NCBI GenBank assembly: GCA_000934665.2
Contig: JYFJ02001496.1
Coordinates: forward strand, 58,062 to 78,061
Direction: 5' to 3'
DNA length: 20,000 nucleotides
From: Catajapyx aquilonaris
Taxonomy: Eukaryota
The notes beneath the pieces were generated by a model. The model was not told the DNA's origin, did not search any database, and saw only the letters and a program-made list of their open reading frames with translations. Every line of letters starts with the position of its first letter. Position 1 is the first letter of the stretch. Shown here piece by piece: positions 1 to 20,000 of this stretch. The position numbers and the translations under genes are program-made.

Positions 1-683
1 CGTAATCGGAGGGCATGTCATAGTGGTGTAAAAGTAAGGGGTTGTTGGAGCAGTCATTGGCAATATGTGTGGGCAACAATAAACGAGTAGGCTACGAAGG
101 AATGGATGGAGCACCACCAAATCACCAGCCCAAGAGTCACTAACTAACCCAGTGGTGAAGCCTGGTTCACATGAAAGAATATTATTGTCATCCCATGTTG
201 CAAATGGTTTTTCATTTTTCTACGCGCAGCTACTGGCTGCTGCTAAGGGTAGGGAAAAAGTACTCGCTTGGGAAGCATGCAAAACTTGTTCGCTGCCCTT
301 GGACACACAAGCGGCAACTACAATTTCACATTATATTTCTGTCAGCATCATTTGTGAGAACATGCAGGAATAGTATTAGCAACTTTGGGTGAAAGTGCCC
401 ATAACTAAAAGGACCTGAATACTTGGAACGCACTGTATTGTGGTACGTATGTGAAACATATTAAAACTGCATGTGTGTCAGGGATGAACATGATGGCCAC
501 CCAAGCGATTTTGAACAAGTAACCGCAGTTTGTCCGTCCTATTGGCCGAGAGGTAGCGAATGTGTGTTCTGTTGACGGGATTATCATACATCGGCCTTCT
601 GAATATATGTTACTAGCAGCAAAGTGAAGTGCAAGTAATGAAATATTCACTATACTCTGAACAATTTCAGGAAGCCAGAAAGC

Positions 684-3391
684 ATGAATACGAAGTGGGT
701 AGGTAGATCTACTGTACCCAGGCTGTATAAGGTGGCCAGCAAAGTGCTGCAGCGAGCAAAGGAGGAAAAGGGCAGCCTGAAGACCTTCATATACGAAGCA
801 AATCACCCCGTAAGTCACATCATTAGCATGAGAGTGGATTGGATTTGTTGCTACAACTTGTTTCATGCTGAAATAATGCAGTGGACACAAACCAATTATT
901 TTGTGTGTTTGGCAGTCACAAACCTACTGTATAGAGCACAGTGTTAATGTAAATTAGTTGCCCTTGGAAGACAGCTTTTTTGTCAATTGGTTAATATGAT
1001 GTGGCAAATTCTTTTGACCATGCTCACTTCATCGTGGCAAAGTTATTCAGTAACTCAGTGTTTCTCAAACTTTTTTGATTGTGGCTCATGTATTGGGACA
1101 TCATGTGGGCTGCTCTGGCTACTAATTCCAGTCACCAAATTCTTATTTGCTAGTCAAATATATATTTTTTTAAATTAATTGTTGATCATGCTGTAGCCCA
1201 CCTTGAGGGCAGTGGGCCACAGAATGCACTGGGAGTACCATTGCATAAACAACTTCATCAGTCCCTGGTTTTAAAAAAACCTATAATCAGTTTTTTATCA
1301 GCTCATGGCCTGCAAGTGGGATATAAACTGAACTTTGAAAACAGCTGCTTTATCTCAATGTGAAACAGTGTTTTAGCATTATAGACCTGCATGATCTCAG
1401 TGACAATCTAACAAGTGCTTTAACATGGGAGGAGATAAAACAAGGCCCAAATTTAATACATTGCAGAATATAAAGGCCATTCATTCCCTTACTGTTGAAG
1501 CCCTGAAACGGTCTGCTCTGATAGATGACTTGGCTACAACTATTGGCCTCTTTGAGGCTGCTCCAAGACTCAATCCCCACCTGGCTCACATTCTCATAAC
1601 TGAGTTGCTATGGGGCAAGAAGAAACTCTCAAGAGCAAGTCAGCCTGAAAGACTTGTCACTGAGCTCATGCAGAAGCACCATTCCACAGTGGCATTCTAC
1701 CAAGAAGACAAATGTGAAGCAGGTATGCATTTATGTCCCAATTTGCTAATTCCAGAGCCACTAATCCAAAGCAATGGAGCCAAAGGCAGCAGGCAATAGA
1801 GGATGGTTTCAGCGTCCAGCCACAAACACCATAAGTGTGATGACTGGGTTCTGGGTGTGCACCATGGCCATGTTCACTCTGCCATTTGCATCTTTCTATG
1901 GCACACGTCATTGGCTGGATAGCCAAGGGTTTGAGGGTTTTCAAGTGACGGTGTGGTCAGTGGTAGCAGCAGTAGTGACTGTGCACATAGTGATTGCTGC
2001 ATATGTGTTTAAGGCATTCAGGGAGGAGCAGGCTGAAGTCAGACAGGCTGCCCTCATTAAGGATGCTATGAAACTGGAATAGAATGTGTATAACCCTCCC
2101 AATCGTTGGCCTCCGTGATTCTTGGGGGGTTTTGTGATTCCTTTTATTCAAAGGAAATTCCACAATAGAACTTAATAAAACAGGGTACCTGTGCAAATTA
2201 ATTCCTGTTTATGTAGGACCCAAGAAACCTCGCTACGTCCGGATTAACACAATCCTGTCTTCAATAAAACATGCCAAGAGGAGCTTTTCGAAGGATGGCT
2301 GGGAGCTGATCGAGTACGATTCTGAATCAGTGACCTACTCTGAGTACCTTGAGAGGATCAAAGAGCTTCAGGGGCACGAGTATATCATGGATTACCATGT
2401 GGAGGGGCTGTGTGTGTTTCCACCAGGCACAGAGTTCCATAAAGATTCCATGTACCACAGCGGGAGAATTTTTCTGCAGGACAAGGCCAGCTGCATTCCA
2501 ATGCTTCTCTTGAGAGCTGAGCCAGGATCAAGTGTCATAGATGCATGTGCCGCACCAGGAATGAAGACAACGCAGTTGGCTGCCATCATGCAAAATGAAG
2601 GGTAAGACATTTTTCTCTTTCATGAAGAGTTTCATTTTCCTATTATTGATGGTGGAAATGTAATGTTATCAAACAGACATATTCGTGCATTGGATTTGGA
2701 CTCCAGGAGATTTGAGACCCTCCAAGCCATGGTGGAAAAGGCAGGCGCCACTTGTGTTGAGAACCTCAACCTTGACTTCCTGACACTTGAACCAAGTGAA
2801 TATGCTGATGTTGATTACATACTGGTGGATCCATCATGTTCTGGCTCAGGTAAAGTGAGAATGGACCATTGTCCAGAACTCTGTCAACTCTGCACTGACA
2901 GCCTTGCAAAATTTGCATTCAGATGATGTGATAGGAGCAAAGGAACTGTCAATTCAACTCATAAACAAAAGTACCAGGTAGTGAACTGAACTCAAATTTT
3001 TTTCCTTCTCCCTTATGCAGGACAAGTGAATCGAATCAACTTGTCAGGAGGACAAGAAGAAGCTGACCCAGACCGCCTCCAACAGCTGGCATCTTTCCAA
3101 GCAATGATCTTATCTCATGCCTGCAGCTTCCCAAACGTGAAACGGATAGTGTACTCCACATGCTCATTGTACGAAAAAGAGAATGAGCAGGTTATTGAGC
3201 GTGTGCTGGAGAAGTGGTCAGGAAGTTTTAAAGTAGTGCGTGGGCTTGGTAAGAAAGTGTGGCCAAACAGAGGATCCAGGGAGTATGGATGGGCCAGACG
3301 GTGCATGTATGCTAGGCCCGAGGAGGATCTTTGTGATGGGTTCTTTGTAGCTGTCTTGGAAAGGGTTACATCACCAGACAATGACGAGTGA
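684..3391 (+). CDS. NSUN5: 28S rRNA (cytosine-C5)-methyltransferase NSUN5/Rcm1 homolog; exons 684-809, 1467-1722, 2217-2601, 2677-2849, 3021-3391 (436 aa)
   Basis: All introns are GT-AG, phases agree, and the total is 1311 nt. Motifs: PRYVRINT, LQDKASC, IDACAAPGMKT (SAM-binding motif I), LVDPSCSGSG (motif IV Cys), VYSTCS (motif VI Cys), DGFFVAVLER. The N-terminal LYKVASKVL..KGSLKT and LLWGK segments are typical of NSUN5. Confidence 0.95.
1056..1231. mobile_element. degenerate hAT/Charlie-like MITE in NSUN5 intron 1
   Basis: Starts CAGTGTTTCTCAAACTTTTTTG, a Charlie-type terminus, and ends ...AGAATGCACTG, a decayed reverse complement. No clean 8-bp TSD. Confidence 0.45.
1774..2082 (+). CDS. 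VMA21: VMA21-like V-ATPase assembly integral membrane protein (102 aa), single coding exon nested in NSUN5 intron 2
   Basis: Two hydrophobic helices with a VMA21-family pattern (AMFTLPFASFYGT ... WSVVAAVVTVHIVIAAYVFKAFREE). Good start context (GCAATGG), acceptor TCCAG at 1751-1755, AATAAA at 2174-2179. Lies wholly inside the intron 1723..2216. Confidence 0.85.
   Translation: MEPKAAGNRGWFQRPATNTISVMTGFWVCTMAMFTLPFASFYGTRHWLDSQGFEGFQVTVWSVVAAVVTVHIVIAAYVFKAFREEQAEVRQAALIKDAMKLE
2174..2179 (+). promoter_or_regulatory. intronic polyadenylation signal for the VMA21-like transcript
   Basis: AATAAA about 90 nt after the VMA21 stop and 37 nt before the start of NSUN5 exon 3. Confidence 0.55.
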
Positions 3392-3430: not shown

Positions 3431-3481
3431 CAGGTGATGAGTCACATAAAAGTCAATTTCCAGCCACCTTTCCTCATTCCC

Positions 3482-3979
3482 ATGATGAGCTATTATTACT
3501 CACCGCCAGCATGTAGTGGCAAAGCTGCTTGTTTTTCCAGTAATGGTACCAGGTTGGTACCTGTCACCAAATCATTACCTTTTTTTCCCACCCTGTCCCC
3601 CCTTCCAGCTTCCCATCGCTATGCAGCAAGCTACGCTGGGATTGGACAGCCACAAAGGAAGGCCGCCCCAAAAATGAGATGGATTGGCCTTGCTGTTTGG
3701 GGGGCAACCCACCATCCCCCAAAAATTGGTGTCAGGTTGTGTTAGGAGTCACATTGTTCCCAAACTTTTCAAAATGTTGACCTTTGGCCAATCAGGTGAA
3801 GGAAGAATTGCACCATGCGCCAATAGACCGACCCCTCTCTGGACCCAGATTTGTTTCAGGTTCACGGTACAGTGCAGCCCCTGCATTTTGTCTGGAGGTA
3901 AGTCCCGGCCACAACGGGGTTATAGGGTTATTGCAGCACTTTCCATTCATAGAGCCGTCTGGCATGGCACAGACCTTGA
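3482..3979 (+). CDS. putative small Cys/Pro/Trp-rich protein (108 aa); exons 3482-3552, 3609-3735, 3796-3897, 3953-3979
   Basis: Three GT-AG introns of 56, 60 and 55 nt (CAG|GTTGGT with a long pyrimidine tract, CAG|GTTGTG, GAG|GTAAGT) join into one open frame. No recognised homology, and the last exon is uncertain. Confidence 0.5.
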
Positions 3980-4033
3980 CACTACTTCCACCCCCAATTG
4001 ACCCGAATCGCTAACGACCCCTCGCTCTGAGGC

Positions 4034-4136: not shown

Positions 4137-7100
4137 ATGCCCCGAATGGTCATTCAGTCCCATCGCAATGAGCCACCCGGCAAAGAAGTAAAGTCTGTCC
4201 AGGATAGTAAGGTGTCCATAACCGAGGATGTTAGGTCGTCTTTTCCGACGTGGCAACGCCGCGTCCAGTACCAGCAGGTAGGGGTCAATTATAGGGAAAA
4301 TGCGTCACGCGACAATCACTAGCAGCGCACTAGTTTAGTGGCCACCGCGAAAGGGTGGACACCATGCTCGAAGACAGCCGCAATGTGTCCTCCTCGATGG
4401 ACATCAGCCCAAGCATGGTGTCGTACAGTTCCTCCTCCTTCAGGAGCGAAGACGAGGACATGTACAGGGTCTTCGCCGACGACCCGGGGACAGGTGGACA
4501 GAGGCCAGGAGGGAGGATCAAGTCCGGACCACCGCCCAACCGAAGTTTCGCCCTGTCTGTGGCGGACGACGATACCGAGTTCAACATCGCAGAGGATGAC
4601 GACGCCATATACGTCGTGGGTCGACCCGGACGGATGGACGACCTGTACGGCGACGGACATCAGGACGGGGAAGGAGACAATAACCAGGAGGACCAGGAGG
4701 AGGTCTCCTCATCTCACCGGGTCAGCAGGTTGATGAAGGCCGCCAGGTAACTTCTTTGTCCCACTCAACAAAACACAACTGATGCGTGTGATGTCAATCT
4801 GAGTCATTGCATGCACTGTACGCGAAAGTATCGAGTTTCTTGGTAATACTGTACCAGCTCATGGAAATGGCGCAATGATATTTACCACGAGTATACCTAA
4901 ATCAAAACTGTAATTGTAAATGACACCGGTTATGACAATCAGTACCTGGTACTGTAGGCATTATGCCATTTTTTCTGTATAGGATGTGGTGTAAGTCATC
5001 CTACGAGCCATGCAACACAAGAGCCTCAATTGTTTAAAGAGCGGCCTGGTTTACAGGGGCTTCCTTTTCTACACGACCTTGACAAACATCAACCAAAATG
5101 CTCGGTAACGAAACAATGTTGTTAGTTTGTTTACGGACGATTTTGGCCTGCAATATAGTGAAAATGAGGTACGTCAAAAAAATAGCGGGTTTTTAAACTT
5201 ATTCTGCCAGTAAACAATCACGGTTGCAGGTAGTTAAATGGAACGTGATTATGCCTCACTAAACTAAAGTATCGATTCCTTAACGCGCAGTTATAGGTCG
5301 AAACGACAGCCCTTAACGACACATTTTACAACGCATGCAGTAAGAAAAACACACACTTGATCGATTCGGCTCTCCAATGACAACTTGCAATTTACTTGGT
5401 AACAAACCGGTCACAATCATTACTCACATCTTTGTCTTTGGGCATTGCAAGCTGAACCGGCTCACCTGCTGAACACTCGGTTAAATACACCCCATTTCGT
5501 GCCGCTAATATGATCCTTGAAGGGTTAATGGACAAGACGGGTTCGCATGATCCGTCCCTGATTGGCCTTTTACATGCAGTGTGAAGGCACCCGAAGTGTC
5601 CCCGATGGACGACCATTACCCCGAGTCACACGACGAGTACGAGCAAGACCAGCTCGAGCCTGAGAGGTGGTCTCGGTCAAGGCTGTCCAAGGATGACTCC
5701 ACCATCGGACTGACCAGCGAGAGGGACGTGGAGGTGGTGGAGATGAGGAACAAGTACGACGACCTCAAGGGATGGAGGGCCACGAAGGTCACCTTCTACA
5801 AGAACGGGGATCCTTTCTACCCTGGGTTCGAGCTGAGGTTCAAGCCAGGAATAGACATGCTGACCATGGAGGCACTGTACGACAAGGTCAACGCAAGACT
5901 GCAGCTGCCCCACGGGGTCAGGTACATATTTGACCTGGACGGATTCCGGATGCAGAAGCTGACTGATCTCAAGGACCACGGAAAATACGTGTGCTCATCA
6001 TACAAGAGGTTCAAGGTACGTTCATATGGGTTGTACCCAGTCTTTGAAGGAATAACCGGTGTCCGTTTCAGACCCTTCCGTACGGCGGCATCAAGACCAA
6101 ATCGTGGCATCCGGCCGGTAGCAAGCTCGCCCAGGAAAATGGTCCCAACTCCCCCAACAATAAGCCAGGCTCCAAGGAAGGCCGTGTCATCCGCATCATC
6201 AACAAAGAGGACACAACCATACAGGTGAGCAACACTTTAGATTACAAATGAAACCTGCTAAAACAGCGCACTGGTTTCAGAGCCGAGTTTTGCTCAACCT
6301 CAAGACCTCCCAGCCGTTCGAGGACGTCCTGGAAGACCTGGGGCAAGTTCTGGGTCAGCAGAGCACGTGGAAAATGACCACCATCACAGGACATGAGGTA
6401 ACGGTGCGGTGAAAATAAAGCCAAAGGTGGTATATCAAAATTGATTTTTACTCTGGTCAGGTGCGCAGCTTTTCCCAGCTGAGGAACGAATTTTCGGACA
6501 TCACCACTTTCTACCTGTCTTCCATCAAGCAGTACTTCGATCCCCATGGAGTGAAACGGCACAATAGCGAGCCGGAAATGAGGAGAAGGAGAGGTGCTTC
6601 TATAGTCCTCCCCCCCCCCCAACTGGAACAATTATAGACACTTTCTATCGAGCCTGTCGGAGCGTGTAACAAATCGTCGTTTCCCTTTTCGCAGACGCCG
6701 CTCGATGGGGAACTAAGAGTAAGGGCAAACCTGCAGTTCTTCCCTACCCGAATAAGCCAAAGCCGGTCACTGTCTTGGTTCAGGGGCTCAAGAGGTCGCT
6801 GTACCCTCCTACCAGGGTGCCTGAATCGGATCCGAGGAGGCCAAGTAGGCAGCTCAACTTGGATTGGGTGTATCCTTTTGATAAGGAGTCATTGTCATGT
6901 CGACCTATGGATATATATGCAATTCTTTAACTGAGGTGCAGGTACGGCTATAACAGCGGTGATGTCCAGCAAAACCTGTGGTCGCTGCCCTCCGGCCACC
7001 TTCTGTACTCGGTCGCGTCGGTGGCCGTCATTTACGACAAGAAGAATGTTCAGCAGAAGCATTACACCGAGCACACCGAAGACATCAAATGGTAATTGCT

Positions 7101-10100
7101 GCCATACCTTCGATCGCAATCATGTCGCAATAAACTAACGTTTTCGTGTCTACAGCATGGCGATGCATCCGAATGGAAAGTTGGTCGCATCCGGACAGGG
7201 ACCCGGGGTTGAAAAATACGGCTACATTCGGGTATGGCGCTGGTCCACCTTGGAAACAACGCACGTGGTCGGGCTGTACGACAGTCTCAACACGCTTCAG
7301 TGCATCGCATTTTCCGAGAAGGTAATTAACAAGAGACATGCAATCAGCAGGGTTGCTAACAATACCACATTTTTACACTAGGACTTTGGAGAGCACCTGC
7401 TGGCCGTGGATGCCGGAATGGAACATGTGCTGACCATATGGCAATGGCAAGACGATCTGGCTACCGGAAAAATCGCTGTAGGCGCTGTAGTTGTTAATTG
7501 TTAAATTAATTATTATTAATGCAATATTTGCACAGATGCAGCAAGATTTACTGGTTGGAGCAGTCTTCCACCCCTTGGACACCAACCTGGTCATAACGTA
7601 CGGCAAGAATCTTCTGGGCCTTTGGAACAGGCGGCGGGACGGCCTGTACGAAAAGCACGACATTGCGGCCGCCGTAAGTCCTGAACGAAACAGCATCGGT
7701 CAATATACGGCATGAATGTTTGATGACGGTTGCAATTTGTCGCCCTTCATTTAGAGGAACGGTCGATGGGTGACGGCGGTGGAATTCCTGGATAATGGGG
7801 ACCTCATCGCGGGAGACACGGAGGGATTTATATCCATTTACACGGTCACGAGCGACGGGAGTTACTACGTCAGGAAGCAGTTCCAGGCCCATCAGGAGAG
7901 CGTAAGCAACCTGAAATTGCTTCCGGAGGGAACCCTGCTGTCGACTGGGGAAGCTGACAGGCGATTAGTGGCATGGGACACCGCGACGGGGTGCAGGAAG
8001 GTCGTGGAGGCGCAGGTCAGTTTTGCAAGGTCAAAGGTCAATGGCGACATTTTGACACACTGTTGGTGTTGACAGCTGCCGGAGAATGCTGGGGAGATAC
8101 GGGAGGTGTGCTTCAAGCATCCTGGGCAGAACGACGGGATCATATACGTGGGGACGAGCAAGAACCTTATATTGGAAGGGACGTTGCAACGTCGTTTTTC
8201 TGTGGTAGGGTTGCTAGGGGAGTGAGTTGAAGGCTCTAAAGATCGATTAGCACACACGGTCTTTTTCCAGGTCGTTTTCGGACACAGCAAGCAGCTTTGG
8301 TCGTTGGCCATCCATCCGGACGAGGCGGCCTTCGTCACTGCCGGACACGACTGCATCGTGGCCAAATGGGCCAAGAGGCAGTTGCAGTGGAAATTGCAGG
8401 TCGGGAGACTGTACTTACTGTACTATACAATCGGATTAACTTAGGACAATTACCACATGAGATGTCGCGCACTTTCAGGTACAAAGCGAATGCATTTCTG
8501 CGGCCTACAATCCTCTGGGGACGGCGGTGGTCGTGGGGACAGTCGATGGGCACTTCGTAGTGCTCAATGAGGAAAGTGGGGACCATGTGACCACCCTTCG
8601 AGTCACCAAAAACAGCGCGATACAGAGCATGGCCTACAGCCCAGGTATAGTCTAAAATATTTATTTATCATCCGCTGATCCGCACTTGCACTTTCTTCCA
8701 TGCTTATACATTGTGGTGATTTGTAAAGTGCGATCTAGCTTCAAGTGTCTTTCGGATTTGCTGGTGTATATGCCACTTGACTTATCAGTGACGATTACCG
8801 CTATCCATTATCAAGAAGCTCTCACAAGTTGTCATATTTTCAGATAAGGTTTAGTTGTCGCGGTTCATTTTATAAATTTATTTAACTAGCTCATCAGTAC
8901 AGAGAATATGACATTCACTATCGGGGCTCCAGGAGCAATACCCGGAATTTTTTTTATGAGGACAAACCTACGCAAACCTACTGTATGTCACCATTATTGC
9001 ATTGATCGGTTGTGTTGTCCTGTACCTAATGTCGAGTGATGCAGGTCCATGTCAAATTCAAGGTTAACAACAATATTCTAAACAACGAACGACAAGGACC
9101 TACCTGGATTTACAATATCGATCCCACAACCGGACCAAAGGTGGTCACCATAGCAATGACACTAAACAATGCTAATTTGGTCCGGTCCGGTCCGCTCTTT
9201 AAAAAAATAAAAAATAAATAAATGTTGAGTCGATTCCAAACTGGTTTGTATAGTTCCAAACTTTTTAAAACGAAATGAGTTCGAAAAAGTTGTCGATTTT
9301 GTCTTCCAAAAAACCGACCCACGGTACGCTAAAGTACAATACACGGACTTTCGACTTCGCATCGGTGAGAACGAAATTGGTCTGCTCTTTTGAGTATCTG
9401 CAGTTGTACTGTATTAAATAACGAATGGACAAAAGGCCGCCAGTTGATTTGATTGATTTGATTGATTTCAGACGGTGACCAGATGGCCCTTGGAGGCGAG
9501 AACGGCAACATCTACCTGTACCACGTAACGTTCAGCGGTTTCTCTTACACCCTGATGGGTCGGGTGAACGGAGTGGCGGCCCATCCGATATGCCAGATGG
9601 ACTGGAGCACTGAGGGGCTGTACCTGCAGACTGTGACCAACGACTACCTGCTCACCTACTGTAAGTCGAGGTCCTCGGTGCTGGAGTCGCAGTCGGTCCA
9701 CCACCTGCTGGAGGTCCACTGCCCCGAGGAAGTCGATCCTTGGGGCAGGGGCATCAGACACGGCCGTCATCCGGCTCCTCTTCCTTGTTGGCTGGCTACG
9801 GCCCCGGGTGGCGCTGCCTCGGGTGCTTCCCATTCACGTTGTCGTACCGCGGAGGTCGCGACTGTGTCGTCCGTTCGGAACGAGTTGTTCTCTGGGAATG
9901 ACAATGTCAACAACTCTTTGTTGAGAGCTTGGAATTCGTTTTGGCAACACAAGCAGATGCTGCCAAACTGTGCGTCATATCCGAAAATAAGCTAATAACT
10001 AATATTGAACTGCTGCTGTCCTGTTTGGTGTAGGACGAGGCAGTATGACACACTATTTGACTAAACTAAATAGAGTAATGAGAGGCTACAGAGATCTTGA

Positions 10101-11893: not shown

Positions 11894-14800
11894 TTACTTT
11901 TCGTCCCCTGCAATCATCACAGACTTGCCCTCTGCTTCACTTTCGCGGTCTACTTTCTTCTCCTCCACTTCCGTCTGGCTCAGTGCTTCATTCATTTCAT
12001 CCGTTTCCACCCTCTTCTCTTGCTTCACAGCAACCATTTTCACCTCGCCTTCCCCTTCTTCCTTTTTGGTCTTGTCTCCCTTCTCATCATCCGTTTCCAC
12101 CCGCTTCTCTTGCTTCACAGCAACCATTTTCACCTCGCCTTCCCCTTCTTCCTTTTTGGTCTTGTCTACCTTCTCATCATCCGTTTCCACCCTCTTCTCT
12201 TGCTTCACAGCAACCATTTTCACCTCGCCTTCCCCTTCTTCCTTTTTGGTCTTGTCTCCCTTCTCATCATCCGTTTCCACCCTCTTCTCTTGCTTCACAG
12301 CAACCATTTTCATCTTGCTTGCAGCGGCTTCCTTCTCAGTCTTCTCTCCCTTCTCAATGTCCACTTCCATCTTGCTTGTATTTCCTGCAGTCTTGCTTGT
12401 GCTGTCCGTGGCACCATCACCCTTCACAAAAAGCCGCACTGGCCTCTGGAATCCCATGGAACTGTGATGCGGAATGGCAATAATTTCTTCCTTCACAAAG
12501 CCCACCTGGTTGAGGAGGTAATTGCTAAAGTTCTTTGGGAAGAATTTGATGGCATTGTAGTTCTTGAATATGTCCTCCTGAAAGAAGAAAAGCCAAGATT
12601 TACACTGGCAATGAATAATGCCTATCTCGGCAACGTGGTTGACTGGGCCAGTGCACTGAAATATTGTGGCAACTCTAGCAGAGGTAAGTGAACAACCCTC
12701 ACCGTGACTTTCTTCTTTCTCTTGTATGAATCCCAAGGTTGTGCCTCAAGCAGCAGCTTCCCTCCTGGCCTCAGCTGTGCATACATGCGCTTGAAGGTTC
12801 GCTTGAGAGCCTCATCACCCCAGTTGAGATGGATCCACTTGGTCAAACTCAGACAGAGGATCACATCGAATTCAGGTACCACCGTTTCTAGCAGCTCATC
12901 AGATTCAAGTACATAGTTCCCCTACAATTCGGAAACAACTGTTGCATTATAACATATTACACATCATACGAAAGTTACTCTTATTTGGACCATCCCATGA
13001 GACCATAATATAGTTTTGCAAGCCATAAATTTTAGCATATTGTTCCCTCCCCCCATTTTAAACACATCTCTAACCATTTGCAAAAAAGTGCAATAATTTT
13101 TAATGAATTCATTTCTTTACTGTGAGTACTTCTTTACATAGAGTATATCAGTTCATATGCTCATAATCCCATCTGAATCACAGGACCTTGTCAGTTTGAA
13201 ATTAATCTTACATCAGTTCAAGACCTAAATAACTCCTGTTGGAACATTAAAAATGGTCATTTTCAGCTGCTTCCACCCAATTAGCAGATAAAATATTCAT
13301 CCCCAAGTCTTGCCCAATATAAAACTTCTGAAAGCATAAATGAAAGCGTACTTACAGATAGGAAAGTGACATTGTGTGGGAACCTTCTCCCTGCTTCTGG
13401 TGCCTTTCCCTGCCTCACACCAGGTACATCCAAGGCCCCATACAGGGCTGGCATAGAGGAAGGAAAGTCCTTCGGAGCTCTTGGCTCTCTGTTCAGGTAG
13501 TGCCTGACATTGGCCCTGGCTGCAGAAATGAGTTTTCGGTCAATGTCCAGTCCCACCATCCGACGAGGCTCGAAGTCTCTGGCCACAGCTAGTGTCACAT
13601 GGCCCACGTTGCAGCCCAAGTCCAGCACATCCTTGCCCTGAAACCACTCCCGCTTCATGTGGCGCAATCGCAGGTCCTCTTCCTGGTTTGGGTTGCGATA
13701 TCCGTAATAGCGAGTGTAATTACCGTACTTGAAGCGAGTGTCTTTTTCACGGAACTTGCCCTGCTTCACTGGCTGCAAAGGGCAATTGGAGAAATGTATC
13801 AGTGATACTGCATCAACAACCCTACCTCAGCAATTTGTTCAAATCCATGGCCATTGGTGCCAACGAAATTCTCACATTAAATCCTTCTCGAGCAACATGC
13901 TGTTGGAAATATCTGTACTCTATCCAGTTATGAAGAAATTCTCCATAAAAAAAATTGGAATGATATTGCTCATAAATAGAGACCGGATTTCTAGGTTTTT
14001 TACTTACTTTTTATTCTGTAGGCAGAACACTGGAACCAAAATATCTATCCATTTCATAACACAAGGACCTCAAAAGTCGTAGTTTTATACCGTTCAACAC
14101 ATTCCTCCCACTTCCATCTGTGAAGGGCGAAGGAGCTGTATAGGCATGCCCAATGAATTCGCTGTAGATATTTCACTTTTCGTGTGTGATCCGTTTACGT
14201 TATAATATGGCATCGAAATATCATTTTCAACCTTTTAAGATGTATAAATTGTCAGACAGTCGTTACCGACTAATCAACGAAAATATGGAATAACTGCTAG
14301 TTTGTTACTGTGCTGCAAAATTCCATGCCCAAGAGTAGGCTGTAATATTGTCTAGGAATGAAAATACATTACAAACTGCTTGATTTTTAGTGCCTATTTT
14401 GACTGTTTACAGGGCCTAAATGCCTACCTTTTCCGGGGGGTTTTAGAACCTAAAAATCCGTTCTCTACTCATAAACCATATGTAACATAATGTATACACC
14501 CAACAGTAGGAGGCTCAAGTGGTACCAAACCCAAGGGATATGATGGAGAAACAAACTGGCTTCAGAAAAAGCGCATGACCTCCAAATGTATACAGCGTCT
14601 AGTTCCAACTCATCCTGTTGAACTAATGGATTGAGGAAATCAATTACAATCGTAGTCCAAGAGTGTATACGAATACCTTGACAGGCTGCCTCCTGGTCTA
14701 ATTGTCCTTACACACTCCTCCAACTTGGTTAGTTTCCAGATGTCAGAAGTTGAAGCCTCTGTTATTCAATCTACCTAACTCACATCACAATACAATTTGA

Positions 14801-17097
14801 ACATACATGCATTTTTCTTGCATCTTAAAACTTTCCATTTGTTCCACTCTTGTTAAAATAGGAGACTCTTACTCAACAAACTGCAGCATCTCCAAGGCCA
14901 TATCAGAGACTGGAGCTACATTATCCTAGATCACATGAGTCTCTGAGCCACACAATCCAAATCTGACACATCTTTGGCCAATTAGCGTCATGTGACCAAC
15001 AAATGCCAATGATAATTGTCAAGGCAGGGCCTCCCACTGTTGATAAGCTCAGTCTGAGAGTCGGAAATATTGAAGGGATAATTTTATGAAGCTGTGCACC
15101 TACCAGAGCCTCATAAAACCAACCCTAAATGCCTAGAAACTCAAGGCGCACCAACAACCATTGCTTGCTATCACCAAATTATCCAATCTCATTTCTTGTG
15201 TGAACGGCGTACTTGTGAAACTATACCTTCTCTTTCAGGAAGAACAAACCACACTCAATGTTCAACAGTTGGGAAAACCGTGCAGCAACATTTCTGTTGG
15301 CACCTCTCATGTACAGTAGCCTACGGCACCACTTTCTCCAAGGCATCAATTAAGCTTCCATTGCAAGCAATCTTCGTCTACAGACTGAATAGGCACCACT
15401 GGAAACTCTTCCACTGGCACCATACTGATGACTGCCCATCTGGCAATCTCTGCTTGCACACCTTCAGCTGTGCCATGAAACAACAAGGTACAAGGCTAAC
15501 TCTTTCGACGTTTTATAACACAATCCTAAAGGAACCATTTTCAACTGTGAACTATCCCATGATGCTGTAAGTAGTGATATTACACTTGAGTTCCAAACAC
15601 ATGTGGCAGAGTGAGTCAATTTATTTACCAATGTCCTTTTAAAAAGTGCAGGGAAATCCAGTTTGGATCCAGTAAAGACCATGGTGTAACGGAGAATAGA
15701 AGTATGACTCACCCTACATGTGTCTACCCCACCACCAATAGCTGAACTGTCAGTGTAAAATCACTGTGGTAAACCAAATGCCCTCAGGTTATCATCTCAC
15801 CTGTGATGCTGCATTGGAATTGGCAGCCTCCCGAGAGTTGCTCCTCCCAAATCCCCACTTCCTGGCACCTGGCTGTGGAACAACAGGACTCACAATCCTA
15901 TCCCTTTCTGACCCTCTCCGGGTTCTTTTTCCTGGATCCTTATTTGCCAGTGCTGCAGGTGCGGCAACTACGTCAGACACTGGCGTAATGTCCAGTTTAT
16001 CAGGAGGTTTCATCACCACTGGGGGTGGAAGCAGCGGAGTTGAGGGAGGGGGCAATGGGTCTTGTTTCTTTGGGTCCACAGTGGCTTCTGGCAGATCCAA
16101 GTTTGCAGGTGCCTCTTCAGTCTTGGGTAGCGAGTCAGTTGACTCACCTGAAGCTCGCTTCTTCCTCTTGCGGGGCCTCTTCCTCTTGTTCTTGAAAGGG
16201 GACATGAGTTTGGATTCCAGGTCATCATCCTCATCCGCTGCATTCAGGTTCAATGGATCATTGACGTTGGGTGGGATCAAGACTTCCACCTGGCCCTTGC
16301 GGTGCTTTGGAGTTGGCAAGGGTGATGACTGTGGTGTCACTGCATTCAGGGCCCTTTGTACAAGTAAATGAGAGATGTCAGATTTCGCAAGTGAGTAACA
16401 CGACATAATAGCTGGAAAAGTATAGCCTCTGGTCAAATAAATAGGTTCCTGAGCAAATATGAGAACTAATTAGGGTGTAATTTACTCAACAGGAACATTA
16501 CCAATGCCACCATCTTGCAAAATGATGCATAATCAGCTCAAACACAGCTTGCTAGATAACAGGCATGAATCATGCTCCAATAAAATAACCTTGTAAATGC
16601 AGAAAAACTTTTAAAAGTCACAAAGCAATTTAAAAACCAGACCTGTTAACTTCCTCATTGGCCAAGCTCCCTAGATTGAGTGGATCTCTTATGTTGCCTC
16701 CAAGCAAGAACTTGGTTGGGGGCACAATGTCAGACTTCTTCCTCCTCTTCCCACCTCCTTCTGTTGCAGTGGCGGCTGCTCCTCCTCCTCCTCCTCCACC
16801 TCCACCCCCACCACCCCCTCCAATGCAGAAACTGGCTGCCCTCTTCCGTGTGCCCTTCTGGCCACGAACATCCCCGCTGCTCTTTGCCTTTTTGCTGGCA
16901 TTGTTGCTGGTGCTCGCAGCTGTACTGCTGCTCTGTTTTGGCGATGTGTTTCCTGTGTTGATCAGAGGAGCTGATGCCGATGACAATGATGCCAATGTGG
17001 CTCGCCTCTCTCGCTTATCCACAGGGTCAAACCTAACTCTCTTAGGGGCCTTTGGTATAGATAAGCCACCTGGTGGCTGAATCTTGGCTGATGCCAT
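11894..17097 (-). CDS. MEPCE: 7SK snRNA methylphosphate capping enzyme (MEPCE/Bin3); exons 17097-16643, 16353-15801, 13772-13356, 12921-12703, 12577-11894 (775 aa)
   Basis: Phases agree (2328 nt). N-terminal motifs [40 protein letters not shown]. Methyltransferase domain [60 protein letters not shown]. The exon 2 acceptor is the uncommon AAG. Confidence 0.95.
11997..12312 (-). repeat. coding tandem repeat, 90 bp (30 aa) x about 3.5 copies, in the last exon of MEPCE
   Basis: Units recur at 12001, 12091, 12181 and 12271 (CCGTTTCCAC...). Only two substitutions among the full copies, with a degenerate continuation to about 12356. Confidence 0.97.
13977..14467 (+). mobile_element. non-autonomous hAT DNA transposon (491 bp) in MEPCE intron, with decayed transposase C-terminal remnant
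   Basis: 21-bp TIRs match at 19/21 (TAGAGACCGGATTTCTAGGTT at 13977-13997; AACCTAAAAATCCGTTCTCTA at 14447-14467). Perfect 8-bp TSD CTCATAAA at 13969-13976 and 14468-14475. Confidence 0.88.
16780..16821 (-). repeat. poly-glycine (14 Gly) coding low-complexity tract in the MEPCE N-terminus
   Basis: Run of GGN codons on the minus strand (CCT/CCA/CCC-rich on the plus strand). Confidence 0.9.
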
Positions 17098-17908
17098 GCT
17101 CTCTTCTCACCTGCAGAGAAACAACAACTGTTAAGAGGTTGCCACAGGTTCAGTGCAAAAATTTCTTACAATTCTTGACACATTTTCAGTTGACATGGCA
17201 AACCCACATCAACAATGCTGTCAGAAACAAATAAAAATTCCCTAACAAAGAAGTTGCTACTGAATCCAGGTTCTAAACATACCTGTTTCATTGGATACAG
17301 CTACTGCGAGAATGTTAAGTTATTCATGTAATTATTTGTAATTCACAAGGCATAAACTTATTCAGTTAATTATTCACCCTGCACTTGTGCAATGTGAGCC
17401 ACACGTAACAAGCTGGTATAATACGTACGACCATTTATGCTAAGCTTGCCCTCAGGTAATTATACAAGGAGCTGAGGATCTCAAAAGTTATGTGAAATGA
17501 TACGAGGTCAGATCACAAAGAATCTCATTTCCCCCCACACTTTTCTGTACTTCACCCAACCCAACCCCCAAGCTCCACTGAACCTCAGTGCACAAGCCTA
17601 AATTTTTCTAGTACTACCAATCAACTTTAGTGGTGGACAAACAGCTGTTGTGTACACTGCATTCATTGCATTTTCTTCTAGTGCCACATTGACCAAACAT
17701 GTTCAGAACCACTGCTATTATTACAATACATTATGTTCCCGATACGCTTATCGAAACAATCAGGAAGATTCAGCATGCTTTTGGGAATGAAGCAATAGGA
17801 ACAACAAAAATAAAAGACTGCCACTATAGTTTTAAATATAGACGAACAAGTTGACAGAAACTAGGCATTCAGCACAGCAATTTGAAAATGGTTGTATTTT
17901 ACACATTA

Positions 17909-18078: not shown

Positions 18079-20000
18079 TTAGGTAATGCCATGTCTTGCA
18101 TTGCAATTCTGTGTACATGATCACAGACAGCATGAAATTATGTGTACCGTAGAATTTAAAAGCCAAGTCTGTTACTAATGAAAATGTGTGCAGACTGTGC
18201 AAGCCATTCCTCTTCTTTCCTGAATGCTTTCAGCCCATCTAAGGCAAGGCTTTAAATAAATATTGACAGGAAGCCTGACAGTGATTACTTTATGGTACAT
18301 ACTGTGTGCTGTGCAGTGCTCAGCCAAAAAAATTACCCTCTCCACTCCCAAATACAGTCAAACCGGTCCACCATATCACCTCATTCTCATAAAAAATTTC
18401 TGTACCAAACAGATGTCAGTAATGTGCAGCAATACATTTGAAAATCCCCCACCAGAACCACGATAAAAATCTGCACTGGCCAAGCTTCAGGCGATTCCAG
18501 GGTTTTATGATTAAATGCTTCAAGTTTGAAAGTTAAATGTAAGGCTGGGGGGTATTCTCCACAGTATGTATCAGAAGCATTTACCCTTTTTGTTCACTGC
18601 TGGAAACGATCTTATTATCTGCGAAAAACACGCCAATATTTCGCACCAAAAAAAAACCTACACAAGTTAATCAAGTTGTGCACACGTGTGACCTGATTTA
18701 GCTCAGTGATTTAGGTATGCAAGAATAAAGACACCAATGAACTGGAAGCACAACCTGATATGCTCGTCCCGTATTTCCAAGATTGGTTCCCGTTACGGTT
18801 AGTATTACCCACACGCGCAAAATGGCAAGAGGCGGGCCCATGGCAATGAAAAATATTGCGTCGACGCCAATCGGTTTTTTAAAAAGAAAATCCTTCGCGG
18901 GGTCAGGCACGACCCGTGGGTACCACCACATGTCGCCTCAAGAAGTGACTTTATCAAGATACAACGTGAGGCAATTATTACGGCAAAATACCCCCTTTGT
19001 CCAAAGTACAAACGACAGACACAATTCCTCGCCTGCAATGTTGTGATATGACATTTCGGTAAGTATATTAAATCGCACTTGTACTACTATCATCGCAACT
19101 TGACTCTGCCAGATTCGCATTTCAACCCCAGTGCAGTGTGCTACCACCCCATTTCTTGCACCTGACATCAAATATTCAGAGAAAAATTCCTAGCTAAAGG
19201 CATGCAATAAAAGAAGCCGAAGAAGGGGAAAAGGGGGAGGAAAAATAGGCACCCACTGGCATTTCCTTTGTTGACAGTAATGAATCACGCTTTGTTGGAC
19301 CATGAAGTATGAATTCATAACACCCCCCCCCCCCCCAAGGTTCCTGAAATACTTATGACAGNAAAAAAAAAGTGTGCATGCAATCGTCTGAAAACCCGAA
19401 GACAATTCCTAAGAGAAAGTTCGGTTGGAAGAATTTCTTCGGCAGTGATGCAGAGCAAATTTATAAAAAAAAAAAATGCAAAAAAAAATGCACAAACAGC
19501 CTTGTCGATGTCACTTGCCTGCAATAAGTCTAGGTTATCGCAATGGCACATGGGAGTTAAAAAAGCAGGCATAATGCGGGCTTATCATGCTATTCCTGCA
19601 CACTCTGTCTGCACACAAACCGATTCACCATTTCCCCGCCCTACTCATAACATGTCAAGCTTCTGAACGACCTTGATATGCCTTTAAAAAATTGCGATAA
19701 TCCTAATTTACAGAGATAATTATTTGGCAGCACAGTTTCAGCGATTTGTACAGTACAGTACTGTACACAGACAGGGCAAAATGCCAACCTTTGCATTTCT
19801 CCCATTGCACATTTAAAAAAAAAAAACAGTGCTACAAAAAAAAAAAAATGGATTGCTGCAGGTCCGCAAAAATACTGTATCAACATTGCTTCATTTTCAA
19901 CCGATGGCATTTTGACCTTTCCGACATCCAGGGGTCACTTCCTTAATCAGAAAATTAATTAATAGGTCAGTGAATTCCCCTAGTGTGTCCTTGAAATCCT

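Follow-up and report, generated by a model that had tools for sequence, protein, structure and literature searches.

The genome of Catajapyx aquilonaris carries a gene for VMA21, a chaperone of the endoplasmic reticulum (ER), inside the second intron and on the same strand of the gene for the ribosomal RNA (rRNA) methylase NSUN5. This arrangement was encountered in a stretch of 20,000 nucleotides (nt) of contig JYFJ02001496.1 (assembly GCA_000934665.2, positions 58,062 to 78,061 of the forward strand), which is referred to as the window throughout. NSUN5 and VMA21 probably form one transcription unit. In the reading preferred here, to which a probability of approximately 0.6 is assigned as a whole, a single promoter would serve both genes, NSUN5 exon 2 and the exon encompassing VMA21 would be spliced in a mutually exclusive manner, and two mRNAs would be the result. 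A first-pass annotation of the window had already proposed the nesting, and all of its sequence statements held on checking of the coordinates.

The VMA21 reading frame and its host gene

The same-strand open reading frame (ORF) of 102 amino acids that the first-pass annotation had designated VMA21-like was confirmed as such by a Pfam search, in which the VMA21 domain (PF09446) was detected with an E value of 3.2e-15 and 56.4 bits, versus a cut-off of 29.5, residues 21-82 aligning with positions 1-64 of the 64-position profile. A phmmer search with the ORF against 1.84 billion cluster representatives yielded 157 proteins at E<=1e-3, the best of them displaying 41-58% identity; the VMA21 domain was found in 146 of the 150 matches listed, in 145 above the cut-off, the remaining four being long proteins of low complexity. 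A word-based search with the ORF for close relatives, which requires three 5-residue words in common, gave no candidate. With a profile built from 51 sequences, yeast Vma21p, chain p of the VO-Vma21p structure 8eau, was matched with an E value of 3.6e-8, while a phmmer search with the single ORF sequence against the PDB returned nothing at E<=0.01. The AlphaFold2 model derived from the 51 sequences is a two-helix membrane hairpin (helices 16-50 and 56-101) with a mean predicted local distance difference test score (pLDDT) of 88.2. Foldseek comparison of this model with 350,542 PDB chains placed Vma21p (8eau_p) on top, with a template modeling (TM) score of 0.75 on the target and an E value of 0.2, which is not significant.

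Besides the full-length domain and the hairpin of approximately 100 residues, the predicted protein shares with yeast Vma21p the MFTLPF core that is conserved in the family. Its C-terminus, ending in AMKLE, has the lysine at position -3 that is invariant in all seven aligned sequences, but unlike the yeast protein it lacks the second lysine of the KKXX motif. This C-terminal dilysine motif is the ER-retrieval signal of yeast Vma21p, and membership of PF09446 does not require it. Judged by its sequence, the ORF is the VMA21 of this animal, the ER chaperone of the V-ATPase V0 sector, and an ordinary member of its family; binding to the c-ring and a role in V-ATPase assembly are predicted from that membership.

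The host gene comprises five exons on the plus strand within the first 3.4 kb of the window, with 436 codons in total (Table 1), and its Pfam domains occur in the expected order (PF21153, NSUN5_N, E 2e-9; PF21148, the NSUN5 ferredoxin-like domain, E 4.6e-20; PF01189, the RsmB/F methyltransferase domain, E 2.4e-7). The RNA evidence consists of assembled contigs from the single public run found to contain this DNA (X1), the library type of which is not on record, and these contigs were taken as RNA-derived because all four NSUN5 introns are skipped with GT..AG ends. The NSUN5 contig (record 3) consists of 59 leader letters, followed by 670-809 and 1467-1722, and continues into exon 3; the complete order from the leader through exons 1 to 5 of the NSUN5 mRNA is seen in the contigs. 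The intron length of 494 nt deduced in the first-pass annotation is exactly what the contig skips, and the upstream non-coding exon that had been postulated from an acceptor at 670 was recovered in the form of the leader letters: the AG at 669-670 is used by the NSUN5 mRNA, with a non-coding 5′ leader exon spliced onto 671. The last 30 letters of this leader are absent from the 20-kb window, and the leader exon therefore lies outside it. An Rfam scan of the window detected no family, and thus no intronic small nucleolar RNA or similar element. Positions 1723-1755, intron 1 and positions 3435-4000 are free of contigs, where the gap itself proves nothing. Contig depth amounted to 30.8 over exons 1-2 and 41.3 over exons 3-5, compared with 14.6 in the contig that contains VMA21, values that look additive and were left unused, as depth cannot rank the parts of a gene.

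The VMA21 ORF is present in RNA as well. A second X1 contig of 489 nt (record 4) equals positions 1756-2244 exactly (0 differences) and starts with the base that directly follows the TCCAG acceptor (AG 1754-1755) that the first-pass annotation had assigned to the VMA21 exon at 1751-1755. The VMA21 exon begins at this predicted acceptor, the use of which is deduced from the contig end rather than from a junction read. The contig spans the whole ORF, the AATAAA downstream of it and the exon-3 acceptor, and it ends in 30 letters that are common to the exon-3 contig, so that some of the VMA21-exon molecules, at least, read on into NSUN5 exon 3. Simple retention of intron 2 was ruled out, as record 4 does not begin at the exon-2 donor.

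Table 1. Features of the NSUN5-VMA21 locus in the window and in two metagenome contigs with the same nesting (L001 and L002, positions of the respective contig)
Feature	Position	Strand	Description
NSUN5 exon 1	671-809	+	ATG 684; 42 codons; ends in phase 0; contig joint to 1467
NSUN5 intron 1	810-1466	+	657 nt, GT..AG; contig joint 809 to 1467
NSUN5 exon 2	1467-1722	+	256 nt; ends in phase 1; NSUN5_N domain; contig joints on both sides
NSUN5 intron 2	1723-2216	+	494 nt; GT 1723-1724, AG 2215-2216; contig joint 1722 to 2217
Spacer	1723-1755	+	33 nt, exon-2 donor to VMA21 acceptor (TCCAG, AG 1754-1755)
VMA21 exon	1756-2216	+	18-nt leader with phase-0 TAA 1762-1764, ORF, 3′ untranslated region; unbroken into NSUN5 exon 3
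VMA21 ORF (P0001)	1774-2082	+	ATG 1774, TAG 2080-2082; 102 amino acids, intronless; within NSUN5 intron 2
AATAAA	2174-2179	+	candidate intronic poly(A) signal, 43 nt before exon 3; T/GT-rich stretch after it
NSUN5 exon 3	2217-2601	+	ferredoxin-like domain and start of methyltransferase domain; contig joints 1722 to 2217 and 2601 to 2677
NSUN5 exon 4	2677-2849	+	contig joints and reading frame
NSUN5 exon 5	3021 to about 3434	+	TGA 3389-3391; AATAAA 3425-3430; contig end 3434; PF01189
L001, NSUN5 exon 1	54-191		one strand, in order
L001, NSUN5 exon 2	332-599		one strand, in order
L001, VMA21	647-922		one strand, in order
L001, NSUN5 exon 3	from 992		one strand, in order
L002, NSUN5 exon 1	642-782		NSUN5 nesting
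L002, NSUN5 exon 2			NSUN5 nesting
L002, first VMA21 exon			NSUN5 nesting

Splice-site spacing and the proposed transcripts

The genomic comparison covered five loci from a scan of metagenome contigs, two of which, L001 (1630 nt) and L002 (1548 nt), have the same nesting as the window. The distance from the exon-2 donor to the VMA21 acceptor is 33 nt in the window, 33 nt in L001 and 20 nt in L002. Such spacers are below intron size, and the donor that serves the VMA21 acceptor must therefore lie farther upstream than exon 2.

The acceptor precedes the VMA21 ATG by 18 nt in the window and by 14 nt in both L001 and L002, which have strong polypyrimidine-AG acceptors at that place. NSUN5 exon 1 ends in phase 0 in all three genomic loci, and phase-0 reading from the acceptor gives AGC CAC TAA in the window, TTC TGA in L001 and GTC TAA in L002, a stop being reached at codon 3, 2 and 2 and ending 9, 8 and 8 nt before the ATG, respectively. 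The chance of stops this early, calculated from the composition of each sequence, is 0.129 x 0.112 x 0.099, with the phase having been picked post hoc. A conserved phase-0 stop is the pattern that is expected if exon 1 splices to the VMA21 exon and the NSUN5 frame must close before the VMA21 ATG. The first-pass annotation had likewise read AGC CAC TAA upon joining exon 1 (684-809, phase 0) to 1756, and the stop it had noted for read-through of exon 2, overlapping the VMA21 start, lies at 1797-1799.

In the proposed mechanism, one promoter upstream of the window, associated with an E-box of the type recognized by MiT/TFE factors in the 5′ leader, would give rise to both mRNAs. Exon 2 would be too near to be spliced to 1756, by which the VMA21 exon would be joined to the donor of either exon 1 or the leader, and this steric constraint would render NSUN5 exon 2 and the VMA21 exon mutually exclusive. 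The VMA21 mRNA would consist of the leader, optionally exon 1, and the sequence from 1756 onward. With exon 1 included, the 42-codon start of NSUN5 would be closed by the TAA after two more codons, and VMA21 would be translated by re-initiation at an ATG 9 nt downstream of this 44-codon upstream ORF; with the leader joined directly, the VMA21 ATG would be the first ATG after 1756. The 3′ end would be formed either after the AATAAA at 2174-2179 or with NSUN5 exons 3-5 serving as 3′ untranslated region.

With respect to this 3′ end, the first-pass annotation had proposed that the VMA21 mRNA is polyadenylated within the intron after the AATAAA, such that the two mRNAs share 5′ sequence only. The signal is indeed there, in its canonical form and followed directly by the T/GT-rich stretch, and a weak AATAAT occupies the matching place in L001, 38 nt before exon 3. 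Moreover, contig assembly trims poly(A) tips, which makes such ends invisible. Against exclusive use of this site, the contig containing the ORF passes both the signal and the exon-3 acceptor and continues into exon 3, and in L001 only 69 nt, without a canonical signal, separate the VMA21 stop from exon 3. Intronic polyadenylation as the sole mode is therefore a possibility that is regarded with some doubt, and NSUN5 exons 3-5 may form part of some VMA21 RNAs.

A contig that begins at an acceptor without upstream letters would also be obtained if a polycistronic precursor were resolved in an operon-like fashion by trans-splicing at 1756, with several leader variants attached to the one acceptor. 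The 59-letter leader, however, stays in one contig with exon 1, unlike a leader that is common to many genes. In addition, the named relatives with the same layout (see below) are insects, from which spliced-leader trans-splicing is not known. Trans-splicing is thus considered most improbable.

Occurrence of the gene pair and a candidate promoter motif

The NSUN5-VMA21 layout is conserved in other arthropods and was encountered in predicted proteins as well as in the metagenome contigs. Three of the 150 phmmer matches listed (P0057, P0107 and P0042) are single predicted proteins in which NSUN5_N precedes VMA21, and both domains occur together in seven of the 120 matches listed for the profile search. 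The named two-domain proteins are from Callosobruchus chinensis, C. analis, Melipona quadrifasciata and Frankliniella fusca; i.e., from beetles, a bee and a thrips. Some of these proteins are plain read-through ORFs, with a short linker that contains an acceptor-like word before the VMA21 methionine. Two beetle gene models connect NSUN5 exons with the VMA21 exon. In C. analis P0153, the beginning of NSUN5 exon 1 leads into the VMA21 exon; in C. maculatus P0154, NSUN5 exons 1-2 do so, with the VMA21 exon read in the +1 frame, where the run compatible with overlapping frames amounts to 38 residues, versus no more than 8 across 20 shuffles. In L002, the VMA21 coding sequence (1290-1548) is split after STAW by a GTAAGT donor, with the second helix outside the contig, whereas the window and L001 ORFs are intronless.

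The in-frame fusion models that databases contain for beetles and a bee could be taken to mean that a fusion protein of the NSUN5 N-terminal domain and VMA21 is made. In the window, joining exon 1 to 1756 leads to a stop after 2 codons, and joining exon 2 to 1756, for which an intron of only 33 nt would have to be removed, enters another frame that ends at the stop at 1797-1799; a fusion protein was rejected for this window on basis of the stops in both junction frames. A decaying retrocopy was likewise rejected: the intact ORF is expressed, aligns with the profile over its full length and occupies a conserved position. Taken together, fusion and retrocopy retain next to no probability.

The nested position might also account for a missed annotation of VMA21. 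According to a figure legend in PMC10452791, no Vma21 ortholog was found in Tribolium castaneum, and VMA21-like proteins of Tribolium madens and Tenebrio molitor are among the profile matches listed here.

The visible part of the NSUN5 leader belonging to the window contains TCACGTG. A scan for TCAYRTG/CAYRTGA, for which the background is 0.6-0.75 matches per kb, gave a single match in L001, 18 nt before the NSUN5 ATG, and a single match in L002, 42 nt before the NSUN5 ATG. In insects, dCLEAR elements bound by Mitf are described in or at the 5′ untranslated region of genes for V-ATPase subunits and assembly factors (PMC10452791), and the same paper gives TCATGTGA at -11 for Drosophila Vma21. 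These matches hint that the V-ATPase regulon may include the promoter upstream of NSUN5 exon 1, which would fit with VMA21 being driven from there. In its most elaborate form, the proposal sees NSUN5 and VMA21 as a long-established two-protein locus, shared by at least three insect orders and this genome, with a lysosome-regulon promoter (MiT/TFE, CLEAR-type), re-initiation, and a steric choice between an rRNA methylase and a V-ATPase chaperone; this combination is rather unlikely to be correct in all of its parts.

Related words were seen elsewhere in the window. A separate X1 contig of 319 nt matches 74-392 with 0 differences, in the intron between the leader exon and exon 1, and contains at 167-174 a perfect TCACATGA, one of three full TCAYRTGA matches in the 20 kb; the segment could be an alternative first exon or the end of another gene. 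The remaining two full matches to TCAYRTGA, TCACATGA at 14931 and TCATGTGA at 14988, are 57 nt apart between a Bin3-like gene and the next minus-strand ORFs, and this pair at 14931-14995 may represent a MiT/TFE-type promoter element pair.

Several observations weigh against a shared promoter with exclusive splicing. The first-pass annotation had predicted a junction into 1756, and of this prediction the exon start was recovered while no X1 contig links 1756 to an exon farther upstream. At the ends of the leader and of exon 1 the NSUN5 contig continues without interruption, and an abundant second junction from these donors should break a de Bruijn contig, unless it is pruned. Contigs cannot show starts or ends, which leaves room for a transcription start just upstream of 1756, and they stem from a single run that possibly used the same sample as the genome assembly. 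Translation of VMA21 by re-initiation would be inefficient behind an upstream ORF of 44 codons. Three of the five metagenome loci, on short contigs, have VMA21 without NSUN5 exons nearby, and the E-box matches fit 7 of the 8 positions of the published motif and were spotted after the fact. Finally, a separate start site is described for CG5969, the VMA21 homologue in Drosophila (PMC10452791), and the NSUN5-VMA21 linkage is therefore widespread without being universal. The single transcription unit of the first-pass annotation stands as far as same-strand nesting and a conserved layout are concerned; because no upstream junction into 1756 was seen, its shared-promoter step rests on comparative inference.

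The missing junction, the unbroken NSUN5 contig and the Drosophila gene would all be accommodated if VMA21 were an independent nested gene, with its own promoter and start in the end of exon 2 or in the 33-nt spacer, and with 1756 as a 5′ end instead of a junction. However, the contig starts exactly after an AG that follows a pyrimidine-rich run, and L001 and L002 have strong acceptors at the matching place. Moreover, a promoter at this position would overlap NSUN5 coding sequence that is conserved, the model would explain neither the conserved phase-0 stop nor the E-box ahead of NSUN5 exon 1, and NSUN5 exons are connected with the VMA21 exon in the beetle models P0153 and P0154. An independent gene is accordingly held to be unlikely, and a common promoter with a choice between exon 2 and the VMA21 exon is preferred.

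Neighbouring genes, comparable loci and implications

Downstream of NSUN5, the plus-strand region 4334-9995 appears to be a DCX-EMAP-like gene, with a doublecortin domain at 5551-6228 (E 1.8e-14) followed by exons of an EML-type beta-propeller at 7755-8072 and 9462-9995. On the minus strand, 11894-13826 contains a Bin3/MEPCE-type methyltransferase gene (Bin3, E 2.2e-27), the ORF of which at 11894-12745 includes a 90-nt unit repeated 4.0 times at 11997-12356 with 94% matches, corresponding to a charged unit of 30 amino acids. Further minus-strand ORFs at 15792-17106 are long and without Pfam match, with a run of approximately 14 glycines near 16800-16850 that reads as proline on the other strand. 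At the other end of the window, two other X1 contigs match only the 40-nt piece at 398-438, with 90-95% likeness and diverging flanks, which looks like a short dispersed repeat. An assembly N at about 19360 is seen as X in the translation of 19313-19666.

The closest known parallel to the NSUN5-VMA21 locus is the cholinergic locus, in which VAChT is located inside the first ChAT intron; in ticks both genes share exon 1, and the second VAChT exon has the entire ORF (PMC7524744). At both loci one exon, located in a same-strand host intron, contains the complete ORF of another protein, and alternative splicing selects the product, as would be the case for NSUN5 and VMA21. The shared exon of the cholinergic locus has been confirmed experimentally, whereas that of NSUN5 and VMA21 is a deduction. 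Furthermore, the two cholinergic proteins act in one pathway, in contrast to NSUN5 and VMA21, which are without a known common pathway. Particular to the present locus are the distance of 20-33 nt between the VMA21 exon and a coding-exon donor, and the conserved stop that closes the host frame before the nested ATG. With these differences, the NSUN5-VMA21 locus is read here as a candidate new example of a gene pair of the cholinergic-locus type.

A second parallel is found in mutually exclusive exons that are enforced sterically. A distance from donor to branch point of less than 50 bp is used as a criterion of potential steric interference (PMC5740500), and the donor-acceptor distances of the window, L001 and L002 all fall below this value. 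The classic cases swap homologous exons of one protein, whereas the swap between NSUN5 and VMA21 would change the protein entirely, and its exclusivity is deduced from the spacing.

In Drosophila, the FlyBase authors use CG42358 and CG42359 to illustrate overlapping or nested genes (PMC3964969), and CG42358 is dNsun5 (PMC4317494). CG42359 appears in PMC3964969 only, and its product was not found in the literature. The fly pair differs from the NSUN5-VMA21 pair in that the VMA21 homologue is given as CG5969 (PMC10452791), which is described with a start site of its own, unlike the window VMA21 inside NSUN5. No paper was found that names both VMA21 and NSUN5; the layout is implicit in the fused gene models of the databases and is not described in the texts searched.

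VMA21 is described as being needed to build the proton pump that acidifies the lysosome, and mutations in human VMA21 as causing myopathy and liver disease. NSUN5 methylates the rRNA of the large subunit, and lowered NSUN5 is reported to alter lifespan in yeast, worms, and flies (PMC4317494). The first-pass annotation had suggested a functional tie between ribosome modification and V-ATPase assembly, which is speculation. If the two genes do form one unit in many arthropods, genetics or RNA interference directed at one gene may touch the other, and NSUN5 knock-downs or promoter mutations in such species would also hit VMA21. Annotations in which NSUN5 is fused with VMA21, or in which VMA21 is missing, need correction. 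In the most elaborate form of the proposal, a single pre-mRNA would link ribosome modification with the acidification of lysosomes. The locus would moreover be a compact natural case of a splice choice forced by spacing, combined with translation after an upstream ORF.

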